NCBI GenBank assembly: GCA_964187785.1
Contig: OZ076409.1
Location: 24,182,001 to 24,246,000 of the forward strand
Length of the DNA stretch: 64,000 nucleotides
DNA from: Amphiscolops sp. MND2022
Lineage: Eukaryota
Direction: 5' to 3'
The translations under genes were made by a program, and so were the position numbers. The notes beneath the pieces are model-generated. The model was not told where the DNA came from and made no database searches. It saw nothing but the letters and a program-made list of their open reading frames with translations. How positions within the stretch are numbered: the stretch's first letter is position 1; the number at the start of each line of letters is the position of its first letter. Below are positions 27,108 through 57,199 of this stretch, in pieces.

Positions 27108-27300
27108 TGTGACAGGGTACTAAAAAGAACAGTTACGCTAAAGATATTAATTACTAACACCTGTAACAAAAATGCTAGAATGAATCTGCTAGAATGAAAA
27201 TGCTAGTTGCTCTTGTCTTTACTTCGAGATACAGTTCATAATACATTGTTATCTCCCCTTCTTTCTTCCTTCTTACATTGCCTCTCAGTAGTCTCCAACA
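27108..27300 (+). repeat. 5' LTR of element 1
   Basis: TGTGACAG...CTCCAACA (TG...CA), repeated at 32206. Confidence 0.9.
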
Positions 27301-30300: not shown

Positions 30301-32040
30301 CAAACGAACGAGAAGGTAATCAGCCAATCAAATCGCGAGAAAGTTACGCGCGGCGGAACGAACGGATTTTCAGTGCGGTACAAAACTTAAGCAAAGTAAG
30401 CGAACAAGAAAATAGCAAAATCATATATAATCACAGGTCAAAAATTATTGACAGAATCAACGATTTCTTCCTACCCGCAAACTATGAAGCCGACAAAATG
30501 CTTCAAAAATTGATTAATTTGGTACAAACTAAGGAAGGAGCAAAAATCTCCAAATTGCCTGCGCCTTGGCGTGAAAAATTTAATTCAGTAGAAATTACCT
30601 TTACATGGACGAACGATTGGTTATTCCAACAAATTTACGTACCTCGATCATGAGCTAAATCCACTACGGACACCCTGGCCTTGACACTATGTTGAGGTAC
30701 ATTTCTGACATATGATGGCCAAAAATACACCGGGAAGTGGTCACGACAGCAAAATGTTGCGATCAGTGCAACAACGCAGGTAAAAACATTAAACCTTTGC
30801 TAAAACAGAAACAATTCAGAAAAATCCCAAAATCGGAAAACCGAACGATGAAATAGCTCTAGATTTTGCGATTCCGTTTCAAAACGCCAAACACGGAAAA
30901 AAATACCTACTAGTAGCCATAGATATTTTTTCAGCATGGCCCGATGCCCTAATTTTACATAAACCGACAACCAAGAAAGTAAATGATTTTTTAAAAAACT
31001 ATATATCTCAGTATGGTATCCCGCAACGAATCAGATCAGATCCGGGCACAACATTTACTGGCGAAGAGTTTAAAATATTCTGCCGAAACTTCCAAATAAA
31101 TCACGTAACCTGCCCAGTGCGCAATCACCGGGGAAATGGCAAAATCGAGCGATTAATACGAACCAAAAACGAACGCCTACGGACGAATAAGAACATAGTA
31201 TTGAAAAAAGACCAATCCGGGATGTCGGAAACAGTATACGCGTTAAGAATGGGGAAAAAAGCAGACAGAAAATCGCCATTCGTAAATTTGTACGGCCGGA
31301 AACCGAACACAGTCAAAAGCAACATAATAGACAAAATTAAAGGTGTTTCAGAAGTAGACCAAGGCCTAAAGTTCTCTACATCAGACTTCGAGGAGGAAGT
31401 AGACTCAGCGATAATGGCTAATGGTGAGAGAGAGGACGCGAGGGTCCAAATTGGAAAGTCAATTCAGAAAAAGAGCGGGAAAACCGTCAAAGAGACTGCC
31501 CACACCATTACGTTCCTACCCAAAGATGGGAAAAAGGAAATCGTATATTCAAAGAGAGATGTGGCGAAGGCAAAACCACAAAAGAAGAGAACAACTCCAA
31601 ACTTAAAAGACGAACAAGCTGGACCGTCCACAAGATGGAATGAAACGGAAGAGTCGTCGGAAGACGAGACATATGTAGCATCGGAAGAAACAAAGGATGA
31701 ATCAACGCCAACGGACACTACCATCACAGAAACTGTGGAGGACACGGCCAAGTGTGAAGAGGAAAGAGAGTCGAGGCCTGAGGCCAATGGGACGGAAAGC
31801 GAGGAAATAGCAATTTCCCAAGAAACGGCAACTCCCCAAGAATTGCTAACTCATCAAGAAACGGCGAACCCGGCAGTAAACAACATTCCTGGAAAAGGAA
31901 AGAAGAAGGCCGTGAAAGCATCGGTGTCGTGCCCCCCCACAAAGGGAAAGTCGCCGGAGACGGCCAAGAGAACGCTACGGAATCGATGTAGTAGTGAAAA
32001 TCGACGAATAAGACAAAAACAAGAAAGCAAAAGAACCTGA
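27300..32040 (+). pseudogene. gag-pol: gag-pol polyprotein of element 1 (stops and frameshifts)
   Basis: Gag with double knuckle CFRCG..H...CP...CEFCDITGH...C. Degenerate protease (KETGSPVS). RT (VALDARALN, V*IDD for YIDD). RNase H (CDAGEQGLGAVL, ELELLAVV). Integrase (HYGHPG, RSDPG, NGKIER). Charged C-terminal tail. Confidence 0.92.
27301..27312 (+). promoter_or_regulatory. Primer-binding site of element 1 (tRNA-Ser-like)
   Basis: TGGCGCTGCGAG directly after the LTR-terminal CA. It resembles the complement of a tRNA-Ser 3' end; the tRNA identity is inferred. Confidence 0.75.
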
Positions 32041-32194
32041 AGTCAGAAATATCTGAAACAGAAGAAACATGAAACATTACAACTACATTTATACTTTACC
32101 ACATTATTACATTATCCTACAGTCATGTAATCTGAAAAAAATAAGTTCTGGTACCATTTATAAACATGTTCCGAAAAACCCCAGGTGTTATGTC

Positions 32195-32205
32195 AAAACG
32201 GGGAG
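32195..32205 (+). promoter_or_regulatory. Polypurine tract of element 1
   Basis: AAAACGGGGAG immediately before the 3' LTR TG. Confidence 0.75.
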
Positions 32206-32394
32206 TGTGACAGAGTACTAAAAAGAACAGTTACGCTAAAGATAATAATTACTAACACCTGTCACAAAAATGCTAGAATGAAATGAAAAACACAACGTTT
32301 AGTTGCTGTTGCCTTCACTTCGAGATACAGTTCATAATACATTGTTATCTCCCCTTTTTCTTCCTTCTTACGTTTCCTTCCTTCTTACATTGCC
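32206..32394 (+). repeat. 3' LTR of element 1 (truncated)
   Basis: Homologous to 27108-27282 and stops at TTACATTGCC. Confidence 0.88.
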
Positions 32395-32459: not shown

Positions 32460-32975
32460 AACTCAAAATGGAATTTTTCATTAAATAATAAGATCAATTC
32501 AGCTTCGAGAGGCATTGGTTGATAATGTGTCTTGAGTACCCAATTTTGGGCTTGGCGTGGCTAAATAAACGTTCACAAATATTCGATGTTCCATCAACCC
32601 AAGATAGGGTTCCATACGTGCCATCTTATCTATCTGAATAACCTTGTTCTCTAAAACTCCGAGAGTTTTCATGTGACATCCCGTCAGGTTTAGTCCGAGA
32701 ATGCAGTTTACAACGACATTTTCAAAGTTTTCGCAGTTGACGATATCCGCACTTTTGGATAATTGATGACTCCTTACCGGCAATGTTCCTATCAGTCCAT
32801 CGAAGGGAGGTCTGATATCCGACAAGTCAATGTTGTAATCTCTTTGAGGACCTTTTGAGACAGAATTTATGTTCGCTAAATTTATCTTCAGTTCATTGAT
32901 TTTCAAATGGTTGTGGTCATCCAGTAAAAGGAGGACTCCAGGTCAGCTTGAGGTAGAAAAGGTTAAAGTTGTGTA
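32460..32975 (-). pseudogene. hAT transposase, C-terminal half
   Basis: ORF 32499-32906 (SVSKGPQR..LSDIRPPFDGLI..SADIVNCENFENVVV). An alternate frame reads GTSNICERLFSHAK, the hAT catalytic-Glu/dimerisation motif. Continuous with 48932-49760 once element 2 is removed. Confidence 0.85.
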
Positions 32976-34351
32976 TGTCAGAACGTGTGGACGTCACTGA
33001 ATTTAGTACGTCTCTGCCGTTCTCTTCCCTACTGTTGGTTATTTTATCAGTAAGGGCTCTCACAATACTTATAAGTTCTCCGATTTGACGGTTCATTTCT
33101 AGTCAACGTTGCTCAATCCTGTGTTTCTCATGATCCCTTTCCATGGATTTCACATCACTTTCAAAATCATTGTCGAAGTTAATTTCAGTGTAATGATCCG
33201 CTACACTCATCTCGTCATCTTCGTCAGAGTATCTATCTACTCCAGATTGTTCGATTCTGTTTTCCCTGTTAAATGTCGATCGGGTATTTACCATTGTTGA
33301 AAAGGTTGAAGTTTGAAAATGGTTTGATTTTAAAATTGTAGTTAATGAATTGAATTTCGCAAAGTTTTCTTTACAGTACGTCTGAATTTCAAGTAACAAA
33401 ATTCTTCTGACTGGATTTTCAAATTGTAATAGCACCTTCAAACTCTTAATTACTTGTTAATTGCACTTGATTGTTTTGCGTCTCTTTCACTCGACTATTT
33501 TGGTCAACCTGCTGTTATCACTTCATGGTACATTACACGACTGGTCACTCCAGTCGTCGCTAATTGCCAGTGTAGCTTTCTCGCTTCTTTGCCGCACCAG
33601 CATGTACCATTGATCGTACAACATCACAGCACGTACTAATGATTGATCTGTTGGGCATAATTACTGTACTTGAATACTGGTAGTAATAGCATTTTTAATG
33701 CACTAAGCACGATTGACGACTAGTATCCGAAGTTGTTGTTGGTAATTTTCACTGAAGATTAACTGAAATGACTGTTTATGAACTAAATGATGCTCTAGTA
33801 ATTTGATTATCGATGACTTGGTTATGAAGAACTGCATGTATATATCAGTTAAAATACGACGGGATATGGCAGTCGTTTACATAAATGGATAATGTACGTA
33901 CTATCACTGATTTGGATATGAAGAATTACATGTATATATTAGCTAAAATACGGCTAGATATGCCAGTCGTTTACATGAATGAATAATGTATTGCACTAAA
34001 ATGTTGTTAAGGTCAATTGCACGTTTTAGTCGTTACTGTGAACCAGGTGAAGAGAAACATATTCCGTATTTTACCAAGTATGACATCAAAAATGCATTGT
34101 GGATTTCTGTTTTAGCTGTTTTGGTTTGTTGTTGAGACGACTAGTATTATCAGTCGCTGGTTAGCACAATTTTGTAATTCGTAGCACAAGTGAAATTGGA
34201 GTGGCGACTGAATGGTACAGTCGTCCATTATATGAGTTTACATGTATTTTAAAATGTTTATAGTTGAAATGTTTGGGTAATTGGTGGTGACTTTGAAATG
34301 CTTGGGTAATTCATCTCTCAGTTGTTTTACTTCATACCAACCGGTATGACA
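32976..34351 (-). repeat. 3' LTR of element 2 (1376 bp)
   Basis: Direct repeat of 47573-48931. Preceded on the minus strand by the purine-rich AAAGCGGCGGGA (34352-34363, probable PPT). Confidence 0.95.
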
Positions 34352-35290
34352 TCCCGCCGCTTTGAAAAAAAATGAAAGTGGGCGGGGAATTGGAGGCAAT
34401 GCGGGTGTGGCCAGTTATTGTAGGTGCCGACTAAAGAGGCTGGCTGCCTTTTTCGCTGGGTAGATTACGGCCCACGGGTGTAGGCAGCTTTCACTCGTGT
34501 GGTGGATGTCTTCAATTGGATGACGACTGGTAGTACTAGTCGCCGTGAGTTGGAAACAGTTATCGGTTTACTGTCGGGTAGGCGGAAGCAGAGCTGAACT
34601 GTGACGTCATTTGCATCTTAGTGTCGGGGATTGGAAGTAATAAGTGCTGAGTGGAAATCGGTATGCCGCGTCATCCGGTCGTGCGCTGATAAGGGAGAGT
34701 AGTCGTGTTAAGTAAATAGTCAGAGAATAACGGCCGCGGCAGTCGGCTCGTGCTCGGTAGTATGAACACGTTTGATGCAGTGAATCGTCCATTCCGTTTT
34801 CCGTTTCCGCTACTCGTGCTTGAGTAAACAATTCATAACTGCGGCAGTTGGTAGATTCGTGCGTAATTGTCATTAGCATCAGTGTTGTTCAACCTTTGTT
34901 ATTATCGTGTTCGCTATTGTTATTCCTCGTTAATTCCGTGATAATTGTTCATTGATTGTTTCGTTATTTTCTGGTATCTTCTCATCACTCTGTATCTCTG
35001 AGGTTTGGGATCGAATATGCTCTGATCTGAAAGGTTTTGATCGATAGGTAGGGATATAAGTAGGATAAAAAACGACTTCTGTGTTCAGAGATAATTATAC
35101 TCTGTTAATAATTCTCAGTGGATTGATTTTTTCTTTCAGTACCACCCCTGGTAGTAACTTTTGATTACTGAAAGGGGTGAAGCTAGTAATTCAAGAAAAA
35201 TGTAGTTGATCAGGCCACATATTCGGTTTCACCAGCGCTGAACTGTTGAGTCGTCATTTTTCCAATTCCTTTGTCTATCCCTACCGTCGT

Positions 35291-38200
35291 ATGTCCGAGC
35301 TGGGCGGTGCGTCTTCTGATGCTGATTTGTGGTCATTAGTGTCGATTGCTGAACAGAGCTATCAGGAACTAGAAGATATGGCTTCTTCTATTGAAGAGTT
35401 GTCAGAAGAAGCGTTGGCCGCAGAAGCTGAACATTTGGGTTCGCCATGCTGTCATTTATCTGGGCGGGTTACGTCGTCATTCCTTGGACATATGAATGAA
35501 TTGCTAGAGCTTGCTCTATCTGATGAATTCCGTAAGTACACTTCGTTATTCCGTTTCCTCCGTCACATGTCAGTGACTGCATCATTTTTTTTGCGAGTAC
35601 TGTGTCTTGTCTCGCTGTTCATTGCTCGAGTCTTTTTCTATATCTTTTTTGGTTTTTGCAGTAGGAGTTTTCAATCTTCAGTTCGGTGAATTAGCCAATT
35701 TTAGCTCATTTGAGCGCTAATGTATCCTGGACTGTGTCATGATGAGAGAGTGATTTCCTTTTTTGCTTGGTTCATAGGTGAGGTAGATGTTCCGACGTTA
35801 CTTGAGTATGTCCGTGCTTTCCCGCAGAGAGACCGTCAGACGGGTGTGTCACCTCCGGACGCTCTAGATGATCAAGTGCACCAGTTGATGGAGTCTCAAT
35901 TGGGTTAGTACTGCATCAGAACCTTTGGTTTACCGCCTCTGTGGTCTCAAGTACCATGAACGATCTTGGTGTGTCTTCGTTTGTCGTTGTCAAGTGTAGC
36001 GTCGGTTGGTGAGAGAACTAATCAATTTGGCAGTAATCTAGGATATTGGGTTTTTTCTAGGTGCAGAAGACTGTGCTGTTTTGTCCTTAGAAGATCTTCT
36101 TGGGCGAGTAGAGGCCCGACTGGAGAAGTGTGTGAACGAGTTGACAAAGGCAATTCTAGAGTTTGCTTTGGGGGAACTTGGGACTGTTGGAGCACTTCGT
36201 GTCGACGAGTTCTGGCACACCTTCAAGGCTGCTTTACAAGAGGTCCTTGAGAAGCAGCGGGTGGATGTGACGCCTCGTGGGTTTACTCCTTCAATCGAGT
36301 TGCCGTCTGTGGAAGTGGGCAGCCGTGATACGAACCCGGGGTGCAGTGGCTCTGGAACTGGTTCATATGTGCCTACTGTGTTCGGTGGTCCTGGATTAGT
36401 GACGGTGGTTGAGCCTGTTGTCGGGACGTCCGCAACTCCAAGACCTGGTAAAGACTCTCAAGATCACATGCAATGTTATACTAACCTTGGGGGTTAAAGG
36501 AAAGCATTAAAACTTTTTTTAATCTTGTATCGTTTCGGAAGGTAGTATAGGCAGTGCTTTTGGGGTATAACGTTTTTCAAGCGTAAGAGAAGATGGAAAA
36601 AATGAAAAAATCTTTTTTTTGTTTTGAGGTTTAGTGTGTGGTTTTAGTGAGGAAGAAGAGGCTCAACACTCTGAAGCCATCGTACTTTGTGTCAAATGTT
36701 GTTGGCTTATTCGTTGGATTTCGGCGGCACAAGCGTGTACTAGATGGTTTCGCGCGTTGCCTCATGTGTCGCGTGGACCTGAGCATTGCGGTTCGTGGCC
36801 TGCAGAATCTATGGGGGCATTGGAAGGGTGCGGAACATACCCTCCTAGAACAAAAGTTCCGCATAATGACTCAGCGCGTCCATTGTTGGATAAGTCCTGT
36901 CGGCCCGTTTCTGCTGAGGAAGACAAGAGGATACGGCTTGAGCGCATGGTCGAACCACCTGTTTACCAAGAGTCGCCGATCAGCCTATCTCTAGAGGAGC
37001 GTGTGGCTTTGGAGCGTGAGGCGGAAGAAGAGAACTCTCGTCCAATTTTGTCTGAGGAGAGTGCCTCATATCTGTGGTTGAGCTCCTTCTTAAACTGTTT
37101 TGCGTCAGTTGCTGGATTTGAATCGCTGATGCGCCAAATGGACGGGTGGGCTAGCAGCTTGAGGGGAGAGTTGAACTTTGTGGCCCGAAGCCTTACCGTT
37201 GCAAAGTGTCATCCACCATAGCATTTTGTGTATGTTTTACATGTGAGGGTGTTTACTGGGGGTATTATATATCGTTTATGTGTTACATGTACTAGGACTT
37301 AGATGTTACATGGTGTGGTGTGTTTTTGGATTTTGGAAGATCTATATTGTTTTGTTTTGTTTAGAGTTTGTTATTGTACATGTGTACCCGTACGTCATGG
37401 AGAAAATTAGTGGCCTCGTGCAGTCTGGAAATCGAGTGGGGCTACGAGTGTACTTCGACGGTAATTTCTGGCGGGTCGACTGTCGTTTTGTGGACGACGT
37501 TGAGTTGAAGACAGTGACACTGGTAATCTGTTCTGTTTGTGACCGTTGGAAGGAGGAAGTGATTTGTCTAGTTATCACGCTGTTGTCTTGTTTGGATCCG
37601 TTGCCCAGTCTATGTAGTGTTGTGGTGGACACTCACGTTGCTGTCGGTCGTTCATTGGCCCATTTTGGACCTGCTGGCAAGTCAGTGGTGATGCTCTTCT
37701 ATGACGTTCAGTGGTTACAACGAAGCATCCGACAGCAGTTACGTCAACGTATTGGTGGCCTGGATCCTTACAATGTTCTCGATTTCCTCAAGTATCGCCT
37801 GTCAAGTGTGGTCAATGGTTCGGCTTTCGACAGAATGCCTTTGTTACGACAGGTACTCTCTTGTGACTTAAGGTGTTGTGTGTGTATAATGTCTAACGTG
37901 TATGGACTTCGCTTAGTTTGTGTTAAGACGCAACCTATGATTATAATATTAGGACTAGGGTGTTCGGTCGTTCCCAACTTTATGCTTCATGGATTAAAAT
38001 GTGGATACTACTTTCTGTTTGCAGTACGTGCGCAGTGACGACTTGACTCTATCTCAATTGGCTGCTGTGTGTGGAGAGCTTGTCGAACGATGGAATGATC
38101 TCGCTGTTTACTTCGGTAACGAGGGTATTGGTTCCATGGTGGAGCTGAGATCAGTCCCTAGTTGGAATGTCGTTATTTTCAATGATCGTTTAGCTCGACC

Positions 38201-39678
38201 ACAGATGGCCATGCTAAGATGGTTATTGGACGAAGGCCAGTATGAACGTTTGGTTGAGATTTTTTTTGTGGTTGTCCGGGCGAAAGAGAAAGAGAAAAAA
38301 AATAATTGATTGAGAAAGTTGATTGTAGTATTTCTCTCATTTTTTGTTCGGTTAAGGGTGGGAAACTGATTTCGTTTAGGCTATAATTATGATTGTTGGA
38401 TTGTTTGTTTTAGTCGTGGCGTCCTTTTCTCGAGAATGTACTAACAGTCGTGACCGTGACTTATGCTTCGAAGTCGATTTTGTTGCTTTCTTACGACGAC
38501 TAAGATGCAAGGTCCAAGATGCTGACAAAATCCCAGCGGCGTTTGATCACGAGCGCCTACTCAGTACAAAGCCTATCGATCTCGGTGTTGTTCCTCAGGA
38601 GCGTTACAAAGCTTTGTTTGTACAATACTTCCGATTTGATGTCCTCGACCAGCAGCGCGTCTTCTATCGCGAGATTCAGCTACTTATGACTAAATTGTGT
38701 GAAGATCTTGTGGCTGACTATCATTCCGACTATGAAGGAAGACTCAACCTGTCTGCGTTTGCTCCCGAAGCCATGTTTAGGCGATCGAAAGATCGGGTTG
38801 TGGATTCCCTGCCCCTGATGGACTGTTGCCTGTTGTTGACTCGTCTGGATTTCCTAACTGATAAACAGGGTGCTAGAGTTGTCCAGCAGTACGACGAAGT
38901 GTACAATTATTTTATGCATCGCTGGCGCAGTCAGTCGTTTACCGGACCTGTTGTGGACGATGTCATTAACTTGTGGCGTTCTTACCTTTTCTGGTCGCGC
39001 TGTGCTGATTTGTTAGAAGGTTTCAAGATCGTCATTTGTTGTTCTGCTCGAAGTCAGTATGTGGCCGATTTTTTGGATGTCGGAGTGACCGCTTTAAGCC
39101 AAGGACAATTACTTACTGTCGAGCATGAATCTTTTGCGAAGTTGGACAGTGCAGGAGTAGTCGGTGGCGCAAGAGAGTTGATGACTGGGTTTCTTCGTCA
39201 CTGCGAGACTACAGATATGCAGGTGTCACGACTTATGGATCCGGAGAGGGGACGGCGCTGGGATCAATTGTTGAAAGTGGGCATTGAGGACGTGTTGTCT
39301 CGTTGTTATCGTGTATTCAACGAGGGAACTGTGGAGTCAACAGGAATCTCGGTCGACGACTACAGGTCAGCGGTGTGCGCTCAGTTGAAGAGTAGTGCTG
39401 GCGATGCATACGCACAGATATGAGGCCGGTCCCGAAATGTTATGTCACGTGGTTCAGCTATTACCTTCTCTGTTGATGATGATGAGCCCTTAATTCGACA
39501 TGTTACGCGTCAAAAAGGTCCTCGGGCCAGAGGGATGTCAGTTTACCTTCCAGTTCTCGTGGTGGGAAAGGAAAAAAAACCTGTGGGCGTTAAGCCTAGT
39601 TCGACAAAGACGGCAAAGAAGGTTGTGAAGCGAAAATTGACCAACGTGTTGAGGAGTGAATCCTCGGAGGAGTATTAG
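35291..39678 (+). pseudogene. Spliced antisense accessory gene inside element 2; BED-like Zn finger and degenerate hAT-transposase-like body
   Basis: Chain of + strand ORFs separated by T-rich gaps with GT..AG ends. Approximate exons: 35291-35531, 35662-36008, 36061-36447, 36648-~37210, 37365-37852, 38025-~38253, 38414-39678. Introns 36009-36060, 36448-36647 and 37853-38024 join ORFs in the correct phase. Motif ARCLMCRVDLSIAVRGLQNLWGHWKGAEH. A few stops and frameshifts. Confidence 0.75.
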
Positions 39679-41479
39679 CAGTTTTGACATTTATGCAAAG
39701 ACTCATTGAAATTGAATTTTTTGCCATTTGTTAATCCCTCTTTTTTGTATTCTTGGTGATACTGATTGATATTGCATTGATTTTGGTGTTGACTTGGTCA
39801 TTGCATCATTTTTTTTGTTTTGCGTTGATGGTTTTTAGTGTTTTCGTATTTACTGCTAGCTGGCGCTCATTTTTAGTCCCGGAACGGGAACATTCGATTT
39901 TTGTTTAGTACATTATTTACTTGCTTGGATTGTATTATTGATCTGGAGTTTGGACAATTTTTTGCATAGATTTTAGTTACATGAACTTGTTACGTCTTGT
40001 ATGTGTTAGTGTTGTTTATCGTGATGACGCTATAGTACTGAAGTGTGTCCGAAAAAATACAATTTTGATTCCGTTTTTTTTCTTTTGTTTTAGCCTAAGA
40101 TTTTACATGTAGTACGTTGTTTCATGTATTTTACTTTACATGTTTCATTTTGTTCGTTGTTACCACTTCGTTGCAAAGTGAGTGACTGAGCCGCTCGCTC
40201 AGTTCGATGACTGGATGCCCAAGGACTGTATCCTTGGTTTGAGAGGTGACTTATTTTGCGTGTCTTTCAAGTTTCATGTCGTTTACCTTAGGAATTAAAT
40301 GCATGTTTTTGTTGTTCTTGGTGTATAACATGAGATCATTTATCTAAATCGACGTCATCATCGTGATGTGTGTCGTTAAGGTCATGAACTTTTGGAAATA
40401 TTATGTTATGGTAAATGCTATGGCGAACGGAAGGTGGACTAGGGTTTTGAGGCGTGCGTGCGTTGGAAGGCTGAGTTGAGAGTAGGGCCCCGAACTCCCT
40501 AAATTTTTTTTTACCAACGCGACGCAAAGCCTACGCATAGTTGGTCTAAGTTAAGGGGTCGGGCGTTCGTGTTTTACTTGGTTTGGTAAGTACGTTTACT
40601 TACCTTGGTTGTCATATGTTTCAATGGTTGGTTTTTAATTTGATGTTCGGTTTATTGGGAAGGTGAGTTGCCGTCGCAACCACCAGTACAAAACTAACTC
40701 TGAATCCAGTTGCTAAAGAGCAACCTTCATCTGTATGGTGACGACCAACCACACAAGCGCGCGTTTTAACGACGCACCCACACAGCCGCACTATGATTGT
40801 AGGGTTAAATGTGTGGGGCTTGGTTGTGTTGTCATAACGTTTGCGAGGCAGCAGATCGTCCCTGTTAGTTCGTTACGCGTTTTGGGAACGTTATTCTCGT
40901 TCACATTTTGCTAGATTTTTTTGTTGTAATAGTTTTTCATTCGAAGTATTTCACTTCTATTGTGGTTATTGTAATTTTGACGTGAATTGAATAAATTATC
41001 TCTCATTAATTTGCATGGTACATGTATATTCGCATCGTGCTTTTCATGACGACTGGTGTCTGCGGACGTTGCGTTTCCGTCCGTTCATTCTTAGTGGCAG
41101 TTAGTGTTCAGGGATTACGCGGCTCAAATGGTGTCGACTGAAAGTAATGGTCGTTTAATCGCTTTGATTTGTTTGTTTTGGAATTCTATTTTGGAAGTGT
41201 TGGTATTACTGGATGATGACTGGAATTGTGTGGTGTAATTCTAGAAAACTTACCTTCGCAGTTTAAATAGATATTGTTCATGACCGTTGTTGGCAGTCGT
41301 TATTGAAAGATGCGGTTTTGAATAAGCTAAAGTGGAAAATCGTTTTTTGTTGTGTGAGTTGTGTTTGGTACAAATTTTTCTTCACTGTAAATGTCAGACA
41401 ATTACCTGGAGTGTTTCGTGACTTTTAGTTGGTTTCGTTGTTTTGCAGAAGTTTTTGTAATACAGGTTTTACTTGGAGT

Positions 41480-44400
41480 TCATGGACAAGGAAGTCTCGG
41501 TAAGACTTCGGTGCGGGTTGAGCCCAGATTGTAACGGGTAGTGTTATTGCGTGACGTTACCGGTGCTTCGTCGGTGGTGTGTGGCAGCTCAATTTGGTGG
41601 ATTGCAGTTGGATCGGGTTCGGCCCGATATTCGTCGTCTAGATGAGCACTGACAACGGAGTTGTCAGTTGGTGGCACGAATGTTTGAGGAGAGTTTTCAG
41701 GGATAAGTTGTGCCAGTTGTCGGTCCTTTGACCTTTGAGCATGTTCGTAGTATATGATACCATGTTCAGTATCGAGTTCTCCAGGAGGCGGCAGTGCGGT
41801 CGTTCGTTCAAAGTGGATCGTTTGGGGTAAATGATCGTTGAAAAGATCCTGGTCGTCGAAAGCTTCAGGGTCGGCAAAGAAGAGATTTGGATCTTCTTCG
41901 ATGTCGTGTATAGGTGCGTTCGGGATGAAAGGGCGTAAACGCATCCTGTGAACGCACTGTGTGCGGGAAGTACCAACTTTTCTAACTATGTAGTTGAAGT
42001 TAGTTAAGCCCTTTACTACTTTGAAAGGGCCTTCCCATTTAAAATGGTTAAATGCAATTTTGTCGGACTGATCAGTGATTTTCGGGTTGAGAATGAACAC
42101 GAGTCGTTAACTTTTAAAGGTGATGCCTGCGCTTTAACGGTCGTAATACCTTTTGTACTTGTGGTAAGCTTGGAGTATGTTATCGTTTACTTGTTTGTAC
42201 TTCTCGTTCACTTGGTCAATCAATTTCGTTAAGTCGGTTTCTTGTGTTCGGTATTGCAGGAGGTTACTGATTTTAAGGTCTAAGGCGTTAAACGGGACTC
42301 TACCGTGGAACACTTCGCTCGGAGTACATTTAAGTGATTGATGGTAGGTCGTGTTGTGAGCCATTATTGCTAGGTTAACATACTTGTCACATTGGGGAGA
42401 GTCAGCGGCGACGTTGATTTTCAGTATCTGCTTTAGCCTTTGATGGGAACGTTCAACCATCCCTATGGTCTGTGCATGCTTTACAGTTGCGTGTTCGATG
42501 TGGATTCCGGCAGCGCTCATTAGTTCGGTCATGATGTTGGAGGTGAAGACTGAGCCTTTATCAGATATTATGTTCTTTGGGATGTAGGTATGACGGGTAA
42601 AGATTTGCATCAGAGCAGTATCTGGTTTGCGAATCGGGATAGCGAACAGATAGCGCGAGAAGTAGTCGCACGCCGTCAGGATGTGCGTATATCCATTTCA
42701 GCAGCGCAGTTCACCTCCCAAATCAATCTCGAGTATGTCTTCAGGACCGTTGCAGGGGTCATGGATTTTTTCAAGAGGTGGAGTTAGGCGTTTTGGGTTA
42801 ATGGGTTTAGCTTTTAGGCAGTCGGTACAGTTACTGACGAATTTTGGAACGTGTTCACTGAGGTTAGGTATGTAAAAACGCTTGCGCAGTTCTACCAACA
42901 TTTTGGTTGCCCCAGGCTGTCCCTGCATGGGGTCGCCATGCATCGTCCTGATTATGGGCAACGTAGTTTCTGGAGGTACTACAATTTGTTTAAATAGAAC
43001 TCTACCAGTGTTATCAAAAAATTTCCTGTACAACACCTTGTTGAGTACTTCAAGACGTCTTCTGTTTTCAACGAGTTTTTGTAAAAAGGAACTAGCTAGG
43101 TTTACGTGGTCTGGAAGAGGTTCGTTGTTAACTGAGACCGAATCATTTTTTGAACGTCTTGGTTACTTAGTTGTTCGTGGACTATTTGTGAATCCCCTTG
43201 CGGGCATACCTGGTTTACCGTGTTGGGTTGCGGTCTTCTGGTAAACTTCGTCAGCATGATGGAGGGAGCTTCGCCTGCTAGGACTGACGCGAGGTGACGA
43301 CTGATGATCTGGATCATCCTGGTACGGTCGTCGTCATGCTGGTGTTGGGTGTTCGCGAGGGAATGCAGTAGGGATTGCATTTGATTGAAAGCATCTTGGG
43401 TGTTGATTGCGTCAAGTTGGTTCTGCTCCAGGGATCAGGTGTTGTAGGGTTTTGCAGTTGCTCGGGGTCGTAGTCTTCTTCATTGTCGTCTTGCTTCGGC
43501 GTTTTTGCTGCTAGGTCGATCTCGATCTAGTGGACAGGAATTTGGTCATTCAGTTTCAGGTGAATCCGGTCTTCGGGGTTAATGTCGAGCCTGGACAGGT
43601 AGTCAGCAGCTGGGTTTCCAACTCCTGGTACGTGGGCTAGCACAACGTCGAATTGCAGGGCTTGGTCGCAATGATTCCACAGTTTTGGTGGGATCCGCTT
43701 TGATTGGAAAAAACGCGTTAGCGCTTTGTTGTCTGTCATCACAATGGTGGGTTTCTTGACTCCCCACAGGATGTGGGCGAATTCGTCGAAGAAGGCGAAA
43801 TGCATGGCTAAAAAATTTTTTCGCAAACATAGTCAGTGACATTTGGCCTTCAGTAAATCGTTGGGAACCAAAAGCAACGGGTGCATACGTCTTCTTCTTG
43901 CCGTCGTTACTTTCGGTGTAGTCTTCAATGAGCAGCACGTACCCTGCCGCGTGTTCGCTGGCATCACACATGATGACAAGTTGTTTGTCAGGCAGTGGCA
44001 ATCTGAGTGACAGTTTCGCAGCTCGTGCTAGATTTTCATTGATGTCGAAAATCGCATCCTTGTGTACCTGCGTCAGTACAAACTTGACATCTTTTTGCAG
44101 TAGTTTGTACAGTGGGACGAGCTTTTCAGCCAATTTCGGAATATATTGTCTGTAGAACTGGACAAATCCGATGTATCGTTGGAGTGATTTGACTGATATT
44201 GGCAGTTTCAGTTTTTTGAGGAAGTTGTCAATGCGACCTTCAAGGGGTGCGATGTCTTTTGTGGTTATGCTTCGACCCAGGAATTCGATCTTCGGATGTC
44301 CGAAGGCGCACTTTGACATCGAGAGCGGCAAGCCTGCTTTCTGTATCTGCTGGAAGACTGCTTCGATGTTGGCAACCAATACGTCCACGTTGCTTGCAGC

Positions 44401-46330
44401 TACTCCAATGTCGTCAACGTATTGTGCACATTTGTCTGTTTTTGCTAGTGCATCAAGGTACTCTCGGATTGTGCTGTTGAATGCAGACAGTGATCTGTTC
44501 AATCATCGAGCAAGACAAAGGTATGCAAAGGTTCTGCTGCCAAGGTAAAAGCAAGAAGTTGGAATGATTGTTCATCGGCCATCTGAAGGCAGTGGTAAGC
44601 TTGTGAACAATCAAGCTTGCAGAAGTACTTCTCGCCAGCCATGTGTTGAGCCGCATCTGCTATTGTTGTGACCGGGTGATTGTGTTGGTTGTAGTTGTTC
44701 TTGAGAAGGTGGTTGATGCGTCTCAAGTCGACTAATATTTGAAGTTTTCCATTCGGCTTCCGTTGTGCAAATATCGGGGAAGAATATTTGCTGTACGGAA
44801 GTGTGGTGACGATTCCGTATTCTTGCATCAGTGTCAATTCGACCAGGAGATCATCCTTCAGGTTGGTCGGCGTCGGTAGGCTCTGTGCGTACACTGGGTC
44901 GTCGTGTTTGGGCGTAAGCTTGATTTTGAAATCAGTGTTGATGCCTATGTGGAAGCGGTGGCGTGCGAAAATCATGTGGTATTTGACCAGTAGTGCTTCG
45001 ATCCTCTGTTGCTCTTGCTCGGTGAGGATTGAGTCATTCCAGCTGAAGTTCTTCAGGAACGTCTGTCGTTGGTCGTCGTCACATGCGGGATCAAGCTTCT
45101 CGGCTTCTCGGAGTTGAATGACTTCATCATATATTCTGCGCTCAATTTTATTGAGATTGTCGGGGTCGTCGCATGTTTTGGGGGTTGGGTACCATCGCTT
45201 GTCCTTGGTTGCACTGGGCTCCTGGAACAACTGATTGATCACAATGTCTGCTTCATCTGAAAATTTGGAAACGAGGGTCAGTTGTTCGTTTGTCATTGGT
45301 TGGACGTTCTTCGCTTGGTTTGGGGTCAAGATGCGGAAGACTGCGACTGTTGTGTGTTGTGGAATCGTTATTGCGTGGTCTAAATGGTTGGTGATTTGGA
45401 CTTGGCTCTGCTGCTTCTTTATTTCGGACATCGATGGAGACACCAGTAGTTCCGTCCTACGTTCGAATGCCGGGAACGCTTCCACTGTGCCTGTTACATT
45501 GCCAATGTCTTTTTCGGCAATGACTGGAACAAATACTTGTTGTCGGGGTGAGATTGTCGTCTTCTGTGTTGCCCTGAGCTCCAACATTTGTAATTTGAAT
45601 TTCCCGTTGTGTGGCTTCAGTTGGAGGGTGATCTCTGGGAAACTGACAATGTTGTTTGCGAGGTGCAGGGTCATAGAGTATTTCTTGAAGAAGGACATTC
45701 CGATCAATATATTTCCCATTGTTGGTAATATCATGAATGTCTCTTCGAACATGTTTCCTCCAATAAAAAATCGAAGGAGGACTTGCTTCCGAACTGGGAC
45801 GATACTTCCATTGGCGATTTGGACTTTGAAGTTCGGGGCTGGGTATTCTTCAAGTTGGGCGGCCGGGTGAGCTTGCAGTATCCGGCGTAGTTTGTTTTCA
45901 GACATTGCACTCTGGATTCCTCCGGTGTCCAGCAGTCCTTGGTTTTCATATGCTCTGAATTGTGGAGGTACATAGAGCATTTTGTTTCGTTTATACAGCT
46001 GTAGTGTTGCACTGAGGGGTCTGACAGTTGTTGGTTTAGGGTGGTCAGTCGATTTCGGCTGGGGTGGGTGTCTCTGAGTTCTCGCCTTAGTCTGGGTGGG
46101 TTGTCGAGTCCTTTGCAGTACAGTCCTTGATTGTACACGTGGGGTCATTGCCAACTAATGGGAGTATGTGGTAGTTGTTGGAGGATATCTTGTGTACATA
46201 GTATTTCATAGAGTGTGGGGTCCGGTTGTCAGAATGCTGCCGACATTCCGACGTCTGAGACTTCGAGTCGTAGTGGTGGTTAGTTTGTGGTTGTTTGCGC
46301 GCACTGGCAGTCTGGTTGTGTTGGGGATGA
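41480..46330 (-). pseudogene. pol: pol of element 2 (PR-RT-RH-IN), fragmented
   Basis: Protease LLDTGG. RT SSPIFAQRKPNGKL..VDLRRIN, KLDCSQAY, QYVDD. RNase H CDASEHAAGYVL. Integrase HGDPMQGQPG..CTDC, ISDKGSVF, VERSH. GPF motif KWEGPFKV. Confidence 0.95.
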
Positions 46331-46337
46331 CGTGGCT

Positions 46338-47891
46338 TTACAAGCTTTTTGAATTCTCGTTGAATTCTTCCCTGTAGTCTTCGTCATACCAGTCGTTGTG
46401 TCCTTCGATTTGGGTGGTCTCGCTTGTTACTTGTGATACTTGGTATTGTGGTTGTCGTGCATTTTGGGATTGTCTGAAGTCTCGTCGGAACTCACGGTTC
46501 TCCGTTGTAGACTGTTTCTGGTAAGGTACATTCTGGTACGCAGAGGCGCCTGGGACTCGATTTCTGCAGTCTCGTGCAGAGTGGCCGACTTTGCCACTGA
46601 TTTGGCACACTAGCTTTGAGTTGTATCGAGGTTTGTCGATCTGGGGCTGCTGGTGGTTGTTGTCTTGTTGAGGGCGTTGTTAGGTTTTTGTGTTGATTCC
46701 GTTAGCTTCGTCTCTGAGACGCTTTCGGCAGTCAATACATTTGTGACCGACAATGTTTTAGTATTTACAGTTCCCTTCGAAATTTCGTTTGACTTCTTTG
46801 TTTGCGTTTGGTTTCCCCGTGTTACTGGTAGTAGCTGTTTGTTGGTTGGTTTGCTGTTTTACGGGGTAATTCTGGAGGTTGTTTAGCGGTTGCATCCTGA
46901 AGTGCTAGGTAGCAGTTGTGCGTATTGGACAAAAAACGTCTTTGGACAAAAGTCTTGATCTCTTCGCTGGTTGCATCATGTTTCCCTGCTATTGCCAACT
47001 CATTTTGTATTTGGATGGGCAATTTGGCAAACAGGAAAGTTTCGGCTATGTCGTTGGCTTTTTTGCCTTACGCCTGTTTTGCCAGTTTTTTGAATTCCGT
47101 GAGGAAGTCGGCAAATGACTCCGTTGTTGGGTCGTACCTCATTTGATCGAATTTGTACTTCGATACATCCTTTAGGTATTCTTTGGCAGATTCCTTGCTG
47201 AACGCCTGGAGATTTTCGGTGGGTGTCATTTCAGTTGTGATTTTCAGGGTTTGCCAAAAGTCGATGGCGTCATCACTGAGGAGGCTTTGGAAGAAGTTCA
47301 ATTTTTGCTCTTCCGTCAGTTTGTGCATGTGGGCCGGAGGTGGTTTTTGAGTAAATGTTCAAATTCAATCTACTTCTCGCGGTTCCCACGGAATAGAGGG
47401 ACCTGTGTTTGGAGGATTTCGGGATGGATCACTCCATCGGTCATTGTTGTTCTGAGGTGCTGTAATTCGGACATGACGTCTCCCATTTGTGGATCATGTC
47501 GTGAATGTGGAGTCCTTCTTAGTGGTTGAGCGTTGGGTGTAGGTGGTGGGTTTGCCGAGACTCCTGTCACCATGTCAGAACGTGTGGACGTCACTGAATT
47601 TAGTACGTCTCTGCCGTTCTCTTCCCTACTGTTGGGTACTTTATCAGTAAGGGCTCTCACAAAACTTGTAAGTTCTCCAATTTGACGGTTCGTTTCTAGG
47701 AAACGTTGCTAAACCCTGTGTTTCTCATGATCCTTTTCCATGGATCTCACATCACTTTCAATATCATTGTCGAAATTATTTTCAGTGTAATGATCCGCTA
47801 CACTCATCTTGTCATCTTCGTCAGAGTATCTATCTACTCCAGATTGTTCGATTCTGTTTTCCCTGTTAAATCTCAATCGGGTATTTACCAT
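46338..47891 (-). pseudogene. gag: gag of element 2, fragmented; starts inside the 5' LTR
   Basis: ORF fragments MVNTR.. (47891), ..SDMVTGV..QVPLFRGNREK, EEQKLNFFQSLL..AIDFW, and knuckle CQISGKVGHSARDC. Ends ...AAAAAGCTTGTAA. Confidence 0.85.
47560..47572 (-). promoter_or_regulatory. Primer-binding site of element 2
   Basis: Minus-strand TGGTGACAGGAGT immediately after LTR end TGACA. Identical to the PBS of element 3. tRNA-Leu-like (inferred). Confidence 0.85.
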
Positions 47892-48931
47892 TGTTGAAAA
47901 GGTTGAATATTGAAAATGGCTTGAATTTAAAAGGGTAGTTAATGAATTGAATTTCGCAAAGTGTTCTTCACAGTACGTCTGTATTTCAAGGTAACAATAT
48001 TCTTCTGACTAGATTTTCAAATTGTAATAGCACCTTCAAACTCTTAATTACTTGTTAATTGCACTTGATCGTTTTGCGTCTCTTTCACTCGACTATTTTT
48101 GGTCAACCTGCTGTTTTCACTTCATGGTACATTACACGACTGGTCACTCCAGTCGTCGCTAATTGCCAGTATAGTTTTCTCGCTTCTTTGCCGCACCAGC
48201 ATATACCGTTGATCGTACAACATCACAGCACGTACTAATGATTGATCTGTTGGGCCTAATTACTGTACTTGATTACTGGTAGTATTAGCAATTTTAATGC
48301 ACTAAGCACGATTGACGACTAGTATCCGAAGTCGTTGTTGATAATTTTTACTGAAGATTAACTGAAATGACTGTATATGAACCAAATGATGCTCTAGTAA
48401 TTTGATTATCGATGACATGGGTATCAAGAACTGCATTTATATATCAGTTAAAATACGACTAGAAGGCCAGTCGTTTACATAAATGGATAATGTACGTACT
48501 ATCACTGATTTGGATAAGAAGAATTACATGTATACATTGGCTAAAATACGACTAGATATGCCAGTCGTTTACATGAATGAATAATGTATTGCACTAAAGG
48601 GTTGTTAAGGTCAACTGCACGTTTTAGTCGTTACTGTGAACCAGGTGAAGAGAAACATTTTTCGTATGTTACCAAGTATGACATCAAAAATGCATTGGGG
48701 ATTTCTGTTTTAGCTGTTTTGGTTTGTGGTTGAGACGACTAGTATTATCAGTCGCTGTTTAGCACAATTTTGTAATTCGTAGCACAAGTGAAATTGGAGT
48801 GGCGGCTGAATGGTATAGTCGTCCATTATATGAGTTTACATGTATTTTAAATTGTTCATAGTTGAAATGTTTGGGTAATTGGTGGTGACTTCATCTCTCA
48901 GTTGTTGTACTTCATACCAACCGGTATGACA
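47573..48931 (-). repeat. 5' LTR of element 2 (1359 bp)
   Basis: Direct repeat of 32976-34351 with scattered substitutions and an ~18-bp indel near one end. Confidence 0.95.
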
Positions 48932-49760
48932 GTGTATCTCTGTCAATCAATTAAACTTTTGACGACCAACGTGTTTTGTTTCTCAAAAATGGCAGTATTT
49001 GAGATTTTTTGCGTAACGCTGCGTTTTTTTAAGGTTCGCTTTTTCAGCATTATGGCCTGTACTTTCTCCATAATAATTTCGTGATTAGGTAAAAACTTGT
49101 TGACGGCAAGATTCATTCAGTGACTAGCACATCCATTTATTGGAACCTTTAGCAGTTTTGAAATGACAATATTAGGGTTCTCGTTTTCTGCAACGTGAGC
49201 AATATTGGAAGTAATGGTGATTTTTCGAAAATATAAATTACGGAAACATGTCATTCATAGTGGCTTCTTGCTGAAGAATGTTCTCCATCCTGCAGAGGAA
49301 CAATTGCCATTAAAGGAGTCAGATTCATTGATTTGTTGGTCGAAGAAAATAGCAAGATACCCAACGATATGCGTGGAATTTAAACTCCAGCATTCTGATA
49401 TGATGATATATTTTCAGGCAGAATTTTAGCATTTTTTGTTCAACATGGTGAACTATTTTGCCAATATACGTTGTCAAACAGACATTGGTGCAAGATTTAT
49501 GTACTTTTGGACATATTCCTTTTCTTATAAAGAATAAGGGCAGTGGTCCTTGACTAGAAAATCCATCCTCGAATGAATATTATTGCCTTTTTTGTTCGTC
49601 TTTCCAAATGATAGAGTGGTTTGTTTCTTCTTCTGCGAAACGTTTTGCGAAAGGCACTCAGGATGATGACGGTAATGTGTAATGTCACTGATCATGTTTG
49701 TATAACCTTATTCTTCTCCACCATGGCATGTATATCCACCATGAGTAAATGGTGGAGTGT
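48932..49760 (-). pseudogene. hAT transposase, N-terminal/central half
   Basis: Minus-strand translation across stops and frameshifts: GYTNMISD..HHPE (BED remnant), ISECWSLNSTH (DGWS position), LLKVPINGCASH*MNLAVNKF (CxxH motif), LRNKTRWSS. Possible TAGG terminus at 49887. Confidence 0.85.
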
Positions 49761-49942
49761 TCAATTCGTCGAACACGTATTCATTTAGCGTGCATTGTAT
49801 GACGTAATGGAACGAATTGATTTCGACTAATCAAATTCGAGCATTCAAAATTACGATAACGTAGTCAGATACGTTCACATACTCCTAGTGCCCTAAATGC
49901 AGGAGCGAAGCGAAGCGGAGCGACGTGCCATATGGCCATACC

Positions 49943-50188
49943 TCAATATTGGTACTTGGCGAAGGGAGCGAAGCGACCGAGCCATACAACAAATATGCTA
50001 ATCCCCACAAAATATAACCAAAGGAAATTATTCGCTGGTATGGAATTCTTTCGACGCATTGAATATATTCAATGCGTCGAAAGAATTCCATATCAGCGAT
50101 TAATTTCATTTGGTTATATTTTGTGGCGATTAGCATATTTGTTGTATGGCTCGGTCGCTTCGCTCCCTTCGCCAAGTATTAATATTGA
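49943..50188. repeat. 246-bp spacerless near-perfect palindrome (fold-back)
   Basis: Arms mirror about 50065/50066 (…GCATTGAATA|TATTCAATGC…). The ORFs on the two strands here are near-identical. Confidence 0.95.
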
Positions 50189-50599
50189 AGTTTTAGCTTT
50201 TCATTTGAAGCTATAGCTTTTCATTTTTCGACGATTTGAATGTTCGACGAATTTAAGTTGCACCGAGTAAATGACGTTTTAGGAACTTCTGCATTCATCG
50301 TAACAGACATTACAATAACTCTAACCTGACAGTAATTCAAGCATAAACGACTGTGAACGCTTCAAAACAAGTAGACAACCAAAGTTTATTATTTGGATTT
50401 GGTTGCTTTCTAATTCTGTTCGCGCCAAAATTATCTTAAATTATTTCAAGTACGTGAAACAAATTACCTCCCAGAATTCTATGTGAGAATAAAATGAATT
50501 TTATTTTCGTGATGAAAACACATAATTTATTTCCATTAAAAAATATTTTTTTCGAAATCGCTGGTCCGGACACCTTTCATAAGCCCTCAAGTGAATCCT

Positions 50600-55996: not shown

Positions 55997-57199
55997 AAGG
56001 CTGCGATACAAACTTTTGTGAATCTCCAACCCTTTAAGGGAACTGAAAAAGAAAATTTTGATGAACTTCTTCGTCAACGTGAGAGTTGTACTCAAGTAGC
56101 TGGCATAACTGATGCCCAGCGTCATAGATACTTATATCTTCACTTGAAATGAGGTGCTTTGACCTTCTTCGACCAGCGAGAGGCTGCTGTGCGAGCAGAT
56201 TATGATGCAGCAGTGGAAGCACTTCGAAACAGATACAAAAACAATCAGAGAGTGCAACTTCAGAAGATCCTCTTCAACTCCAGGAAAATGAAGGCTTCAG
56301 ACGAAAGCCCTCAAAAATTTCTAACGGAACTTCAGAGATTAGCTTTAGAAGCGTACCACGATATTCAAGCACGAGCTGCAGCTGGAGGACGACCTGCAGT
56401 AATTACCGAAGACCGCGCACAAGAACGCAATCGCAGAGTTCGTGAAGCATTCATCAATGGAATGCCAATCGAAATGAAGAGATTCCTCATGACCCAACCT
56501 GAAGATATGGCAATAAAGGAACTATGTACCAAAGCTTCCAGTCGACTCATAGTTGATCGCCTCTACCCTGAGGACGACGACACAGCCTTCAACGAGGTTT
56601 GCATCTTCACTACAAAACAACTCCTAACTGGAATCCATGAGTTATCCAAAGCTCAATATACTCTAAAAGAAGAAACAGGAAAACTCTCCACGGAACTTCA
56701 AGAACTCAGAAAAACACTCCAGCTAACTATCAACCAACTTGCAGCTAACCAAAACAATAACAATCGCAATAACAACAATTCGAACAACAACAACAATAAC
56801 GACAAAAATCGCCAGCAATGGAACAAGAATAGTGGACCACAAAATCGCGGAAACAATTCTCAAAATTGGAGAAACAACAAAAACAACCAACAGAATTGGA
56901 ATAACAACATGCAACACAATTGGAAACCCAGAAATCCAAACTGGCAACCACGCGGACGAAACTGGCATAATAATAACAACCCAAATTTCGCTCAAACCGA
57001 CCGCATTCCCGACCCAAATTTCCGACCGCAACAAACCTATATGCCTGCTTTGCCCTACAACCAATTCTCCAACGCCAACTTTGTACCCACACAACAGTTT
57101 CCGATACAACAAACCCAGATGACTTCGATGAACCAAATGCCACAATCATGGCCCACTCAATATGAAGCCAACCAGTCCAACAACTACCAAAAAAACTAG
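55997..57199 (+). pseudogene. gag: gag of element 3
   Basis: Start codon mutated (AAG) and one TGA, then a 346-aa ORF with a capsid-like region (ESPQKFLTELQRLALEAY, VREAFINGMP) and an N/Q-rich tail. Ends AAAAAAACTAG. Confidence 0.88.

Follow-up and report, generated by a model that had tools for sequence, protein, structure and literature searches.

The question raised by this locus is how an intron-containing gene came to lie antisense to gag and pol inside a Gypsy-type LTR retrotransposon, and what it may do there. Introns in antisense orientation stay in the genomic RNA, from which they are not spliced, so that a split gene of this kind can survive each round of retrotransposition. Extra genes in antisense have long been puzzling in LTR retrotransposons, and a 2020 review regarded their origin and function as unknown and insertion of a transposable element (TE) as unsupported (PMC7264820). 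Our findings on the window (i.e. the whole 64,000-nucleotide stretch of DNA analysed here) point to an origin that is traceable to a DNA transposase and would thus span both classes of mobile elements.

A split antisense gene carried by a Gypsy family

In line with a preliminary description, which saw a TSD-bounded Gypsy element with extra DNA separating pol from the 3' LTR, the window holds a complete Ty3/Gypsy-type LTR retrotransposon on the minus strand, with the 5-bp TSD GTGTA on both sides and ~7 kb from integrase to the 3' LTR (Table 1). Its 1.36-kb LTRs have TG..CA ends and are 93% identical with gaps (K2P 0.053), a primer-binding site and a polypurine tract common to relatives adjoin them, and Pfam gives the pol domain order PR-RT-RH-INT; no Rfam match was found in 32900-49000.

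Table 1. Features of the retrotransposon and its antisense gene, by position in the window
Feature	Position	Strand	Basis
TSD, left copy (GTGTA)	32971..32975		sequence comparison of element flanks
3' LTR, 1,376 bp, TG..CA	32976..34351	-	LTR comparison
Polypurine tract adjoining 3' LTR	34352..34364	-	sequence; similar tracts in other subfamilies
Putative promoter / 5' untranslated region of antisense gene	34365..35290	+	position only; colinear in sister copies
Exon 1, ATG, acidic	35291..35531	+	ATG 31/34, donor GT 34/34
Exon 2, 126 nt, stop in window copy	35778..35903	+	AG and GT 34/34, length 126 in 34/34
Exon 3, helical part and Ser/Pro/Gly linker	36061..36447	+	alignment of 34 copies
Exon 4, C-x2-C...H-x5-H zinc finger, best conserved part	36648..37212	+	profile match, copy alignment
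Exon 5, RNase-H-like core and start of insertion domain	37365..37852	+	profile match, model
Exon 6, insertion domain by position	38025..38235	+	copy alignment; GC donor in window's lineage
Exon 7, remaining insertion domain, third catalytic segment (degenerate), basic tail rich in Ser	38414..39678	+	profile match
Non-coding spacer with repeated TTACATG/TACATGTA	39679..41479		motif counts
GACGTCATCA block in spacer	~40351		sequence
Spacer block of ~150 nt, 80% conserved in distant subfamilies	40638-40791		sequence comparison
pol (PR-RT-RNase H-integrase), stops and frameshifts in window copy	41480..46154	-	Pfam
gag-like ORF, broken in window copy, start inside 5' LTR	46368..47891	-	tblastn, young relative's ORF
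Primer-binding site	47555..47572	-	core common to seven distant relatives
5' LTR, 1,359 bp	47573..48931	-	LTR comparison
TSD, right copy (GTGTA)	48932..48936		sequence comparison of element flanks

The chain of exons opposite gag-pol is confirmed as a plus-strand gene of seven exons and six introns, albeit with ~1,092 codons rather than the product of 1,150-1,200 aa first estimated. Eight of the ten splice sites originally named are real, the donors at 35532, 36448 and 37853 and the acceptors at 36060, 36647, 37364, 38024 and 38413 being canonical in 32-34 of 34 aligned copies, whereas the acceptor at 35661 (AG in just 2/34 copies) and the donor at 36009 (GT in 20/34) had been misplaced and the conserved exon 2 overlooked. 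Two donors had gone unnamed, namely 37213 (GT in 31/34 copies, but not in the window copy) and 38236 (GT in 29/34, GC in 5/34); overall, splice sites of the gene hold in 31-34/34 copies. That the gene is not an env is borne out by its antisense orientation, by a longest sense ORF in the pol-3' LTR interval of only 112-219 aa (40 copies) and by exons 1 and 3 to 7, in which no conserved transmembrane segment was found (hydropathy >1.8 in 0-4 of 15-17 copies per exon). Searched singly against Pfam, these same exons gave no match beyond a weak zf-BED (7/21 exon-4 sequences, best E 0.026), TRP28 / PF04195 being absent.

The window copy of the gene is broken. Exon 4 has a frameshift near 36874 besides its lost donor, exon 5 has one near 37379, and exon 7 is out of frame at ~39109-39147, with a stop at 39421 and more breaks near 39527-39581. 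Such a state, together with an almost neutral decay relative to the closest sister (dN/dS 0.82), would suit a single nested insertion peculiar to this copy, or ORFs that arose by chance, but that idea is refuted by other copies: 37/39 sister loci carry the gene colinear into integrase and 22/22 distant loci (35-40% identity) have the same exon layout, with antisense integrase in view in 16. In the splice check of the distant loci the acceptor control was clean and the wrong-phase donor control uninformative, since GTRAGT supplies a second GT. The open spliced frame is kept in 6/34 copies, and between subfamilies dN/dS is 0.06-0.11 in the proposed frame as against 1.6-4.0 in shifted frames, so that the gene signal exceeds chance. 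Together, the copy survey, splice-site conservation and purifying selection establish, with next to no doubt, a gene that is inherited family-wide under selection, much as the preliminary description had surmised for a stable, intron-containing accessory gene. LTR elements can, it follows, carry a six-intron gene in the long term, and standard ORF-based annotation would overlook such genes. A non-autonomous LTR subfamily with the accessory gene alone (L115) was considered and dropped, its apparent second LTR being foreign sequence there. Longer relatives of exon 7 numbered 0/4,756 candidates in a word-seeded search, and metagenome scans with the exon-4 alignment gave no match.

Probable descent from a hAT-like transposase

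To our minds, an origin of the gene from a hAT-like transposase is strongly supported by profile comparisons and, in part, by modelling. Exon alignments were compared, profile against profile and with pairwise E-values, with a 97-member transposase family that had been picked on the basis of a motif. Exon 4 aligned to transposase positions 33-69 (probability 58%, E 1e-4), exon 5 to 184-267 (17%, E 1.4e-3) and exon 7 to 448-642 (92%, E 7.6e-7), which in this order are the zinc finger, the RNase-H core and the insertion/C-terminal region; for each of the three, 0/40 block-shuffled controls reached the score. Exon 6 alone was without a significant match (E 0.36; 21/40 shuffles as high), exons 1 and 3 had no profile match to this family, and an earlier local profile comparison with 8 transposases was weak and is superseded by the 97-member alignment. 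Within the donor family (A7; P0166-P0289) D, D, CxxH, RW and E are invariant in 96-97/97 members, and elements of the family in the genome have TIRs and 5-6-bp TSDs in 9/10 cases. A TSD of 5-6 bp is described as a mark of hAT5/hAT6 (PMC12730594); A7 also displays the DDE, CxxH, RW and TIR traits of the hAT superfamily (PMC12730594; PMC4763223). The Pfam domain Dimer_Tnp_hAT had 0 matches in 7 and in 28 A7 members; one UniRef name reads Dimer_Tnp_hAT.

The exon-5 model (pLDDT 78) has RNase-H topology and, in Foldseek, matches Hermes with E 3.7e-4, probability 1.00 and the highest listed query TM-score (0.45-0.46), the top row being HIV integrase. VIA-align aligned 140/157 of its residues to Hermes, the longest among the 50 matches listed, and ranked Pelota (Z 7.7) and ribosomal S11 (Z 7.4) above Hermes (Z 6.1, rmsd 7.8); in a wide VIA search Hermes was absent among the 50 matches listed. 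Since Pelota and S11 outrank Hermes in the one search and HIV integrase tops the other, the exon-5 fold by itself speaks for the RNase-H type only. Profiles, the exon-5 model and structure searches combined indicate an RNase-H-like core followed by a helical insertion domain. For exon 7 the model (pLDDT 71, last third poor) was uninformative, with no Foldseek match at E 0.001 and a best Z of 5.3, and neither the exon-7 profile nor the transposase profile gave a significant match when the PDB was searched by sequence. Dynein-like clusters for exon 7 in the ESM Atlas (0.90, low recognition) were dismissed; zinc-finger clusters for exon 4 at 0.91-0.93 in the same atlas are a lead only.

The absence of TIRs or a TSD had been read as speaking against a secondary insertion. 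None were found flanking the gene, across copies with the TIR of the living relative as query, so that part stands; the gene nonetheless most likely began as an ancient nested DNA-transposon insertion. Our literature search found no description of such a cross-class capture of a DNA transposase by an LTR retrotransposon.

A putative DNA-binding regulator and its alternatives

Zinc-finger residues C, C, H and H are found in 21/21 antisense proteins, and the near-invariance of the finger while LTRs diverge is unlike a fast arms race. The CxxH and RW motifs are absent, E occupies the third catalytic position in at most 11/64 sequences, the second has D in 4 and E in 9 of 21, and the first has D in 12/21, in a register that is uncertain. 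As loss of CxxH, RW and the glutamate is reported to abolish or cripple hAT activity (PMC4763223), cutting activity has very probably been lost from this protein. This loss pattern, finger kept and cutting site gone, is that of host-domesticated transposase transcription factors. A protein still active as nuclease or transposase could be argued from the aspartates that the window's lineage retains at both candidate positions, but with those motifs missing and no TIRs flanking the gene it seems very unlikely. An acidic residue persists near both aspartate positions in many subfamilies.

We therefore envisage no enzyme but a regulator, and put the probability of a DNA-binding self-regulator of the retrotransposon at roughly one in two. 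In an ancestor of the Gypsy clade, a hAT-like DNA transposon would have landed antisense in the interval from pol to the 3' LTR. The retrotransposon would then have retained the transposase, while the TIRs disappeared, the cutting site decayed and the zinc finger stayed conserved. The protein (~1,092 aa), presumably made from a spliced antisense mRNA of its own, would enter the nucleus and bind DNA motifs repeated in LTRs and spacer of the family, thereby promoting transcription of the element or shielding it from silencing; TnpA and VANC of plant DNA transposons are the model for this role, and disarmed transposases acting as regulators have reported precedent (bioRxiv 10.64898/2026.08.24.746577). 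More tentatively, the whole clade of animal-type Gypsy elements may have domesticated a class II transposase as a spliced, sequence-specific trans-regulator, its targets being motifs of the TACATGTA/GACGTCATCA type in LTR and spacer, its effector the acidic N-terminal extension, and its introns kept or even gained under antisense protection. In this version P0091, a distant relative outside the assembly, would date the arrangement to before a single species. The one metagenome match obtained with P0091 as query was a chance match in a bacterial locus.

As for candidate targets, TTACATG occurs 70 times in 16 spacers against 6.4 expected, counts that are not independent because the spacers are related, with a strand bias of 51 to 11; exons have 1 against 3.8 expected and integrase 0 against 3.5, and 6/8 LTRs, unalignable ones included, contain three each. 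TTACATG might alternatively be a signal in RNA or for a host factor. CpG shows no depletion (o/e 0.92-1.16; CpG transitions only 1.3x the non-CpG rate), so a VANC-like demethylation role would have little to act on.

Granted the same origin, the protein might instead act at integration or on cDNA, binding element ends or integrase and aiding nuclear import or steering insertion to chosen chromatin. Transposases oligomerise and bind ends, selection acts on the entire scaffold as well as on the finger and is about as strong as on integrase (dN/dS 0.06-0.11 against 0.08-0.13), and accessory and integrase distances correlate (rho 0.66, 0/2000 permutations). Yet the two trees conflict for L107, L126 and inside one clade, so that the pairing appears exchangeable, and the motifs sit inside LTR and spacer, not at the tips; we consider this role unlikely, if worth keeping in mind. 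Nor do we favour the gene as a brake, be it on the family itself, with antisense transcription assisting in copy-number control, or as a host service, with the protein inhibiting hAT DNA transposons in a dominant-negative manner. Silencing can result from antisense transcription as such (PMC7264820) and the genome's related DNA transposons are short and deletion-derived (756-1,941 bp in 10/10), but carriers are numerous and young, with 851-944 first-look candidates and LTR pairs 99.0-99.9% identical in four subfamilies, and neither TTACATG nor GACGTCAT is concentrated in DNA-transposon loci.

A captured host gene with zinc finger and RNase-H-like fold, either not transposase-derived or already a domesticated hAT transposase before capture, seems distinctly improbable, because matches to a single transposase family fall, in order, on three distinct segments and sequence searches found no host-gene-like full-length relative. 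It would fit the related transposase ORFs, which are uninterrupted across the intron positions (matches 152-426, 414-784), and the missing TIR remnant (a 10-mer of the living relative's TIR occurs in 3/59 loci, none flanking the gene); a domesticated intermediate would account for the six introns and still keep the hAT ancestry. The family offers a protein that can be tested, motifs as candidate targets, young subfamilies and hundreds of copies of every age.

Comparison with known systems

Like the antisense gene, aORF-3R of plant Retand, Grande and RIRE2 and of fungal Boty is described as family-wide, antisense, located between pol and the 3' LTR and conserved like pol, and is presumed to be a nuclear regulator under a promoter of its own (PMC7264820; PMC11963269). 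It has, however, been described in the form of ORFs, for the most part carrying TRP28, a plant-only domain, whereas the gene studied here has six conserved introns, no Pfam match and an apparently traceable DNA-transposase origin; for the aORFs, dissimilarity to other TEs was taken as no support for TE insertion (PMC7264820). With hAT5/hAT6-type transposases (P0166-P0289; Hermes as structural reference) the antisense protein shares the zinc finger, the RNase-H core, the insertion domain and the C-terminal segment, all in one order, but it has ~250 extra N-terminal residues and a basic tail (K+R = 18-23 per 95 residues) and is without CxxH, RW and the conserved glutamate, and its gene, without TIR or TSD, is carried along inside an LTR element. 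Captured extra genes are also described for Gypsy-like elements of animals, in bdelloid rotifers (ORF3s) and planarians (Burro cargo), where the cargo, unlike the antisense gene, has Env-like, esterase, exonuclease or apoptosis domains (PMC5408684, PMC6431247); the main text of the rotifer ORF3 paper uses none of the words transposase, intron or opposite. Finally, TnpA of Spm, reported as transposase-derived (bioRxiv 10.64898/2026.08.24.746577), and VANC of VANDAL, reported as derived from a host protein (PMC13547354), are transposon accessory proteins with short motifs repeated in non-coding parts of their elements; the non-coding TTACATG repeats here are strongly enriched, albeit in related sequences and with a strand bias. 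TnpA and VANC act for DNA transposons, within their own class, and in plant genomes that are methylated; in the present case a class I element would be served by an enzyme of class II.

A selected antisense gene inherited with its retrotransposon

The element has the domain order of Gypsy (protease, RT, RNase H, integrase; Pfam), its LTRs differ by a K2P divergence of 0.053, and between integrase and the 3' LTR lie ~7 kb. Searching the 1.07-Gb assembly with 1 kb of the accessory gene's last exon (DNA search) gave 41 matches, the window counted in; 39 other loci were fetched and, with six rearranged ones dropped, 34 sequences were aligned, which form four subfamilies (65-78% identical) and yield the exons tabulated here.

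Features of the LTR element and its accessory gene (window positions)
Feature	Position	Strand	Basis
LTRs of complete LTR element	32976-34351 and 47573-48931	minus	TG..CA ends, 5-bp TSD
Exon 1	35291-35531	plus	copy alignment
Exon 2	35778-35903	plus	copy alignment
Exon 3	36061-36447	plus	copy alignment
Exon 4	36648-37212	plus	copy alignment
Exon 5	37365-37852	plus	copy alignment
Exon 6	38025-38235	plus	copy alignment
Exon 7	38414-39678	plus	copy alignment

In 37 of the 39 fetched sister loci the gene runs colinearly into integrase, and the accessory gene is thus real and family-level rather than a one-copy insertion, as the preliminary description had proposed; nor is it an env. Two splice sites put forward there (35661 and 36009) are not conserved among the copies, and exon 2 takes the tabulated position instead. 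All twelve splice sites, which bound introns of ~150-250 nt, are canonical in 31-34 of the 34 copies, with GC at one donor in 5. The ATG survives in 31 copies, and six combine all sites with an open frame of ~1,092 codons. The window copy itself is defective: exons 2, 4, 5 and 7 are each disrupted, and so is the donor of exon 4. The GC donor, that of exon 6 (38236), occurs in the window's subfamily and one other.

Expected purifying selection was borne out in five subfamily pairs (the sixth being saturated): dN/dS is 0.06-0.11 in the proposed frame, compared with 0.08-0.13 for integrase. Shifted frames yield 1.6-4.0, two frames on the opposite strand 1.4-4.8, and the mirror frame 0.17-0.22. 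Inside subfamilies the gene's ratio is higher (0.36-0.82), a rise that is expected where only lineages that replicate are under selection.

With two distant relatives as queries, protein searches gave 851 and 944 first-look candidates, 100 and 95 of which were scored, and 22 distant loci were picked from these for diversity. All 22 hold exons 3, 4, 5 and 7 on one strand (exon 7 at ~35-40% identity), 16 with antisense integrase within the fetched flank and one more with antisense RT. Among the testable cases, acceptors keep their phase in 13/16, 22/22, 18/20, 20/20 and 20/21, and 0-1 are shifted by one base. LTR pairs 99.0-99.9% identical in four distant subfamilies imply that carriers of the gene were active recently. 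Across 26 loci, distances between accessory genes track those between integrases (rho 0.66), some loci being mosaic. Together, these data show a selected, spliced-type antisense gene that is inherited with its element.

In trees, loci L107 and L126 place the accessory gene in one clade and integrase in another, which suggests possible recombination between subfamilies. In L100, L102, L104 and L106 a gag-like ORF starts 321-330 nt within the 5' LTR and reads through the primer-binding site; its LTR-internal part in the window is 47573-47891.

Probable derivation from a hAT-like transposase

Sequence searches of Pfam and PDB gave the accessory gene no match. Motifs in the exon-7 alignment offered a lead to a hAT-like transposase family; elements of this kind turned up in this genome in a pattern search, and of all ORFs in those loci the exon-7 profile ranks the transposase ORFs highest (E 3e-4). 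The 97-member donor family gathered from these ORFs is invariant in its zinc finger and in D, D, CxxH, RW and E, and 9 of 10 local elements have TIRs with 5- or 6-bp TSDs, a hallmark of hAT5 and hAT6 according to PMC12730594. Among the local insertions, loci L060-L071 form a DNA transposon family with TIRs beginning CAGGG (TSD 5-bp in 5/10, 6-bp in 4/10), all of them short deletion derivatives.

Profile-profile comparison places exons 4, 5, 6 and 7, in exon order, on donor positions 33-69, 184-267, 370-393 (not significant) and 448-642; no block-shuffled control (0/40) reached the scores of exons 4, 5 and 7, and those of exons 1, 3 and 6 lie inside this null. Independently of the profiles, AlphaFold predicts an RNase-H topology for exon 5. 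Foldseek matches this model to both HIV integrase and Hermes (E 3-4e-4), the TM-score being best for Hermes; VIA-align aligns more residues to Hermes than to any other structure listed and gives other RNase-H-like folds higher Z. The exon-7 model found no structural match. To a hAT-like origin we assign a probability of about 0.9.

All four zinc ligands are unchanged in 21/21 sequences, and among the exons conservation is highest in exon 4 (58-65% between distant subfamilies versus 24-37% for exon 5). CxxH and RW are absent, the glutamate is not conserved, and acidic residues near both aspartate positions occur in ~60% of sequences, not invariantly. Exons 1-3 add ~250 residues without transposase match, and the tail is basic and Ser-rich. 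The donor's living relatives in this genome have no introns at the corresponding places, so those of the accessory gene stem from another lineage or from an intermediate domesticated by a host, or were acquired within the retrotransposon.

Other elements and unusual loci

A pol-less arrangement (L115, L117, L119 with L129-L131, L133, L134) pairs a full accessory gene with a second one behind it that is inverted, internally deleted and of another subfamily (~80% to L097/L101, 71% to its neighbour). The arrangement is 98-99% identical in three loci and extends into shared DNA that has neither gag nor pol; it is apparently cargo of a larger duplicating unit. P0091, a protein of 420 aa on short contigs, is 18% identical, and nothing in this genome matches it above 28%; it may stem from another organism. 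L132:4765-8984 was rejected as a chance match on a bacterial contig, its ORFs in a row presumably resembling Abi-type, Argonaute-like and SIR2-like proteins.

On the window's plus strand lie a second LTR element, 5 kb long, with short LTRs and a Pfam integrase (27108-32360), and a third, broken Gypsy-type element (56153-62334; RT 49% identical to the studied family) with two unexplained ORFs past integrase (60802-61524, 61666-62334). A dispersed repeat of 11-bp tandem subunits, in both orientations (968-2039, 7374-8307, 15257-15699), is probably a DNA-transposon or MITE family, and 49940-50191 is a near-perfect 252-nt palindrome (126-nt arms, 94%).

Candidate targets, function and known systems

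From these features we infer a scenario where a retrotransposon would have captured a DNA transposon in antisense, a placement that would shield introns from loss in retrotransposition, catalysis would have decayed and the protein may have been put to use as a nuclear DNA-binding factor. In Kat1, according to PMC4763223, the BED finger confers DNA specificity and cutting requires CxxH and DDE. Candidate targets of the accessory protein may be sought in the spacer (39679-41479) between its gene and pol, where TTACATG, chosen from an LTR scan, is 11-fold enriched while rare in coding parts. In an unbiased scan of 14 spacers TACATGTA ranked top (27 versus 1.0 expected, present in 14/14), and the block GACGTCATCA is common to all 14. 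This motif type is absent from 11 kb of another Gypsy element in the window. Caution is called for, however: the spacers are mutually related, the motif has a strand bias, and CpG sites bear few signs of methylation.

What such binding might serve is a matter of graded likelihood. Self-activation or anti-silencing has about even odds to our minds. A role at integration seems unlikely, and one in repression rather improbable.

Two spacer blocks, a short, often doubled one of GACGTCATCA type at 40351 and one of ~150 nt at 40638-40791, are at least 80% conserved across subfamilies whose spacers otherwise fail to align; they have no Rfam match and are possible packaging, 3'-end or binding signals.

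Searches of open full texts brought up no title, abstract start or passage on an LTR element whose antisense gene is spliced and derived from a transposase; a prior annotation, for instance in Repbase, is possible. Section 6 of bioRxiv 10.64898/2026.08.24.746577 nowhere uses the words LTR or retrotransposon. Extra ORFs are already known in animal Gypsy elements (PMC5408684, PMC6431247, PMC8220671), and Gypsy elements of plants and fungi have antisense ones (PMC7264820; PMC11963269). Regulators that derive from transposases are known from both DNA transposons and hosts (bioRxiv 10.64898/2026.08.24.746577; PMC13547354).
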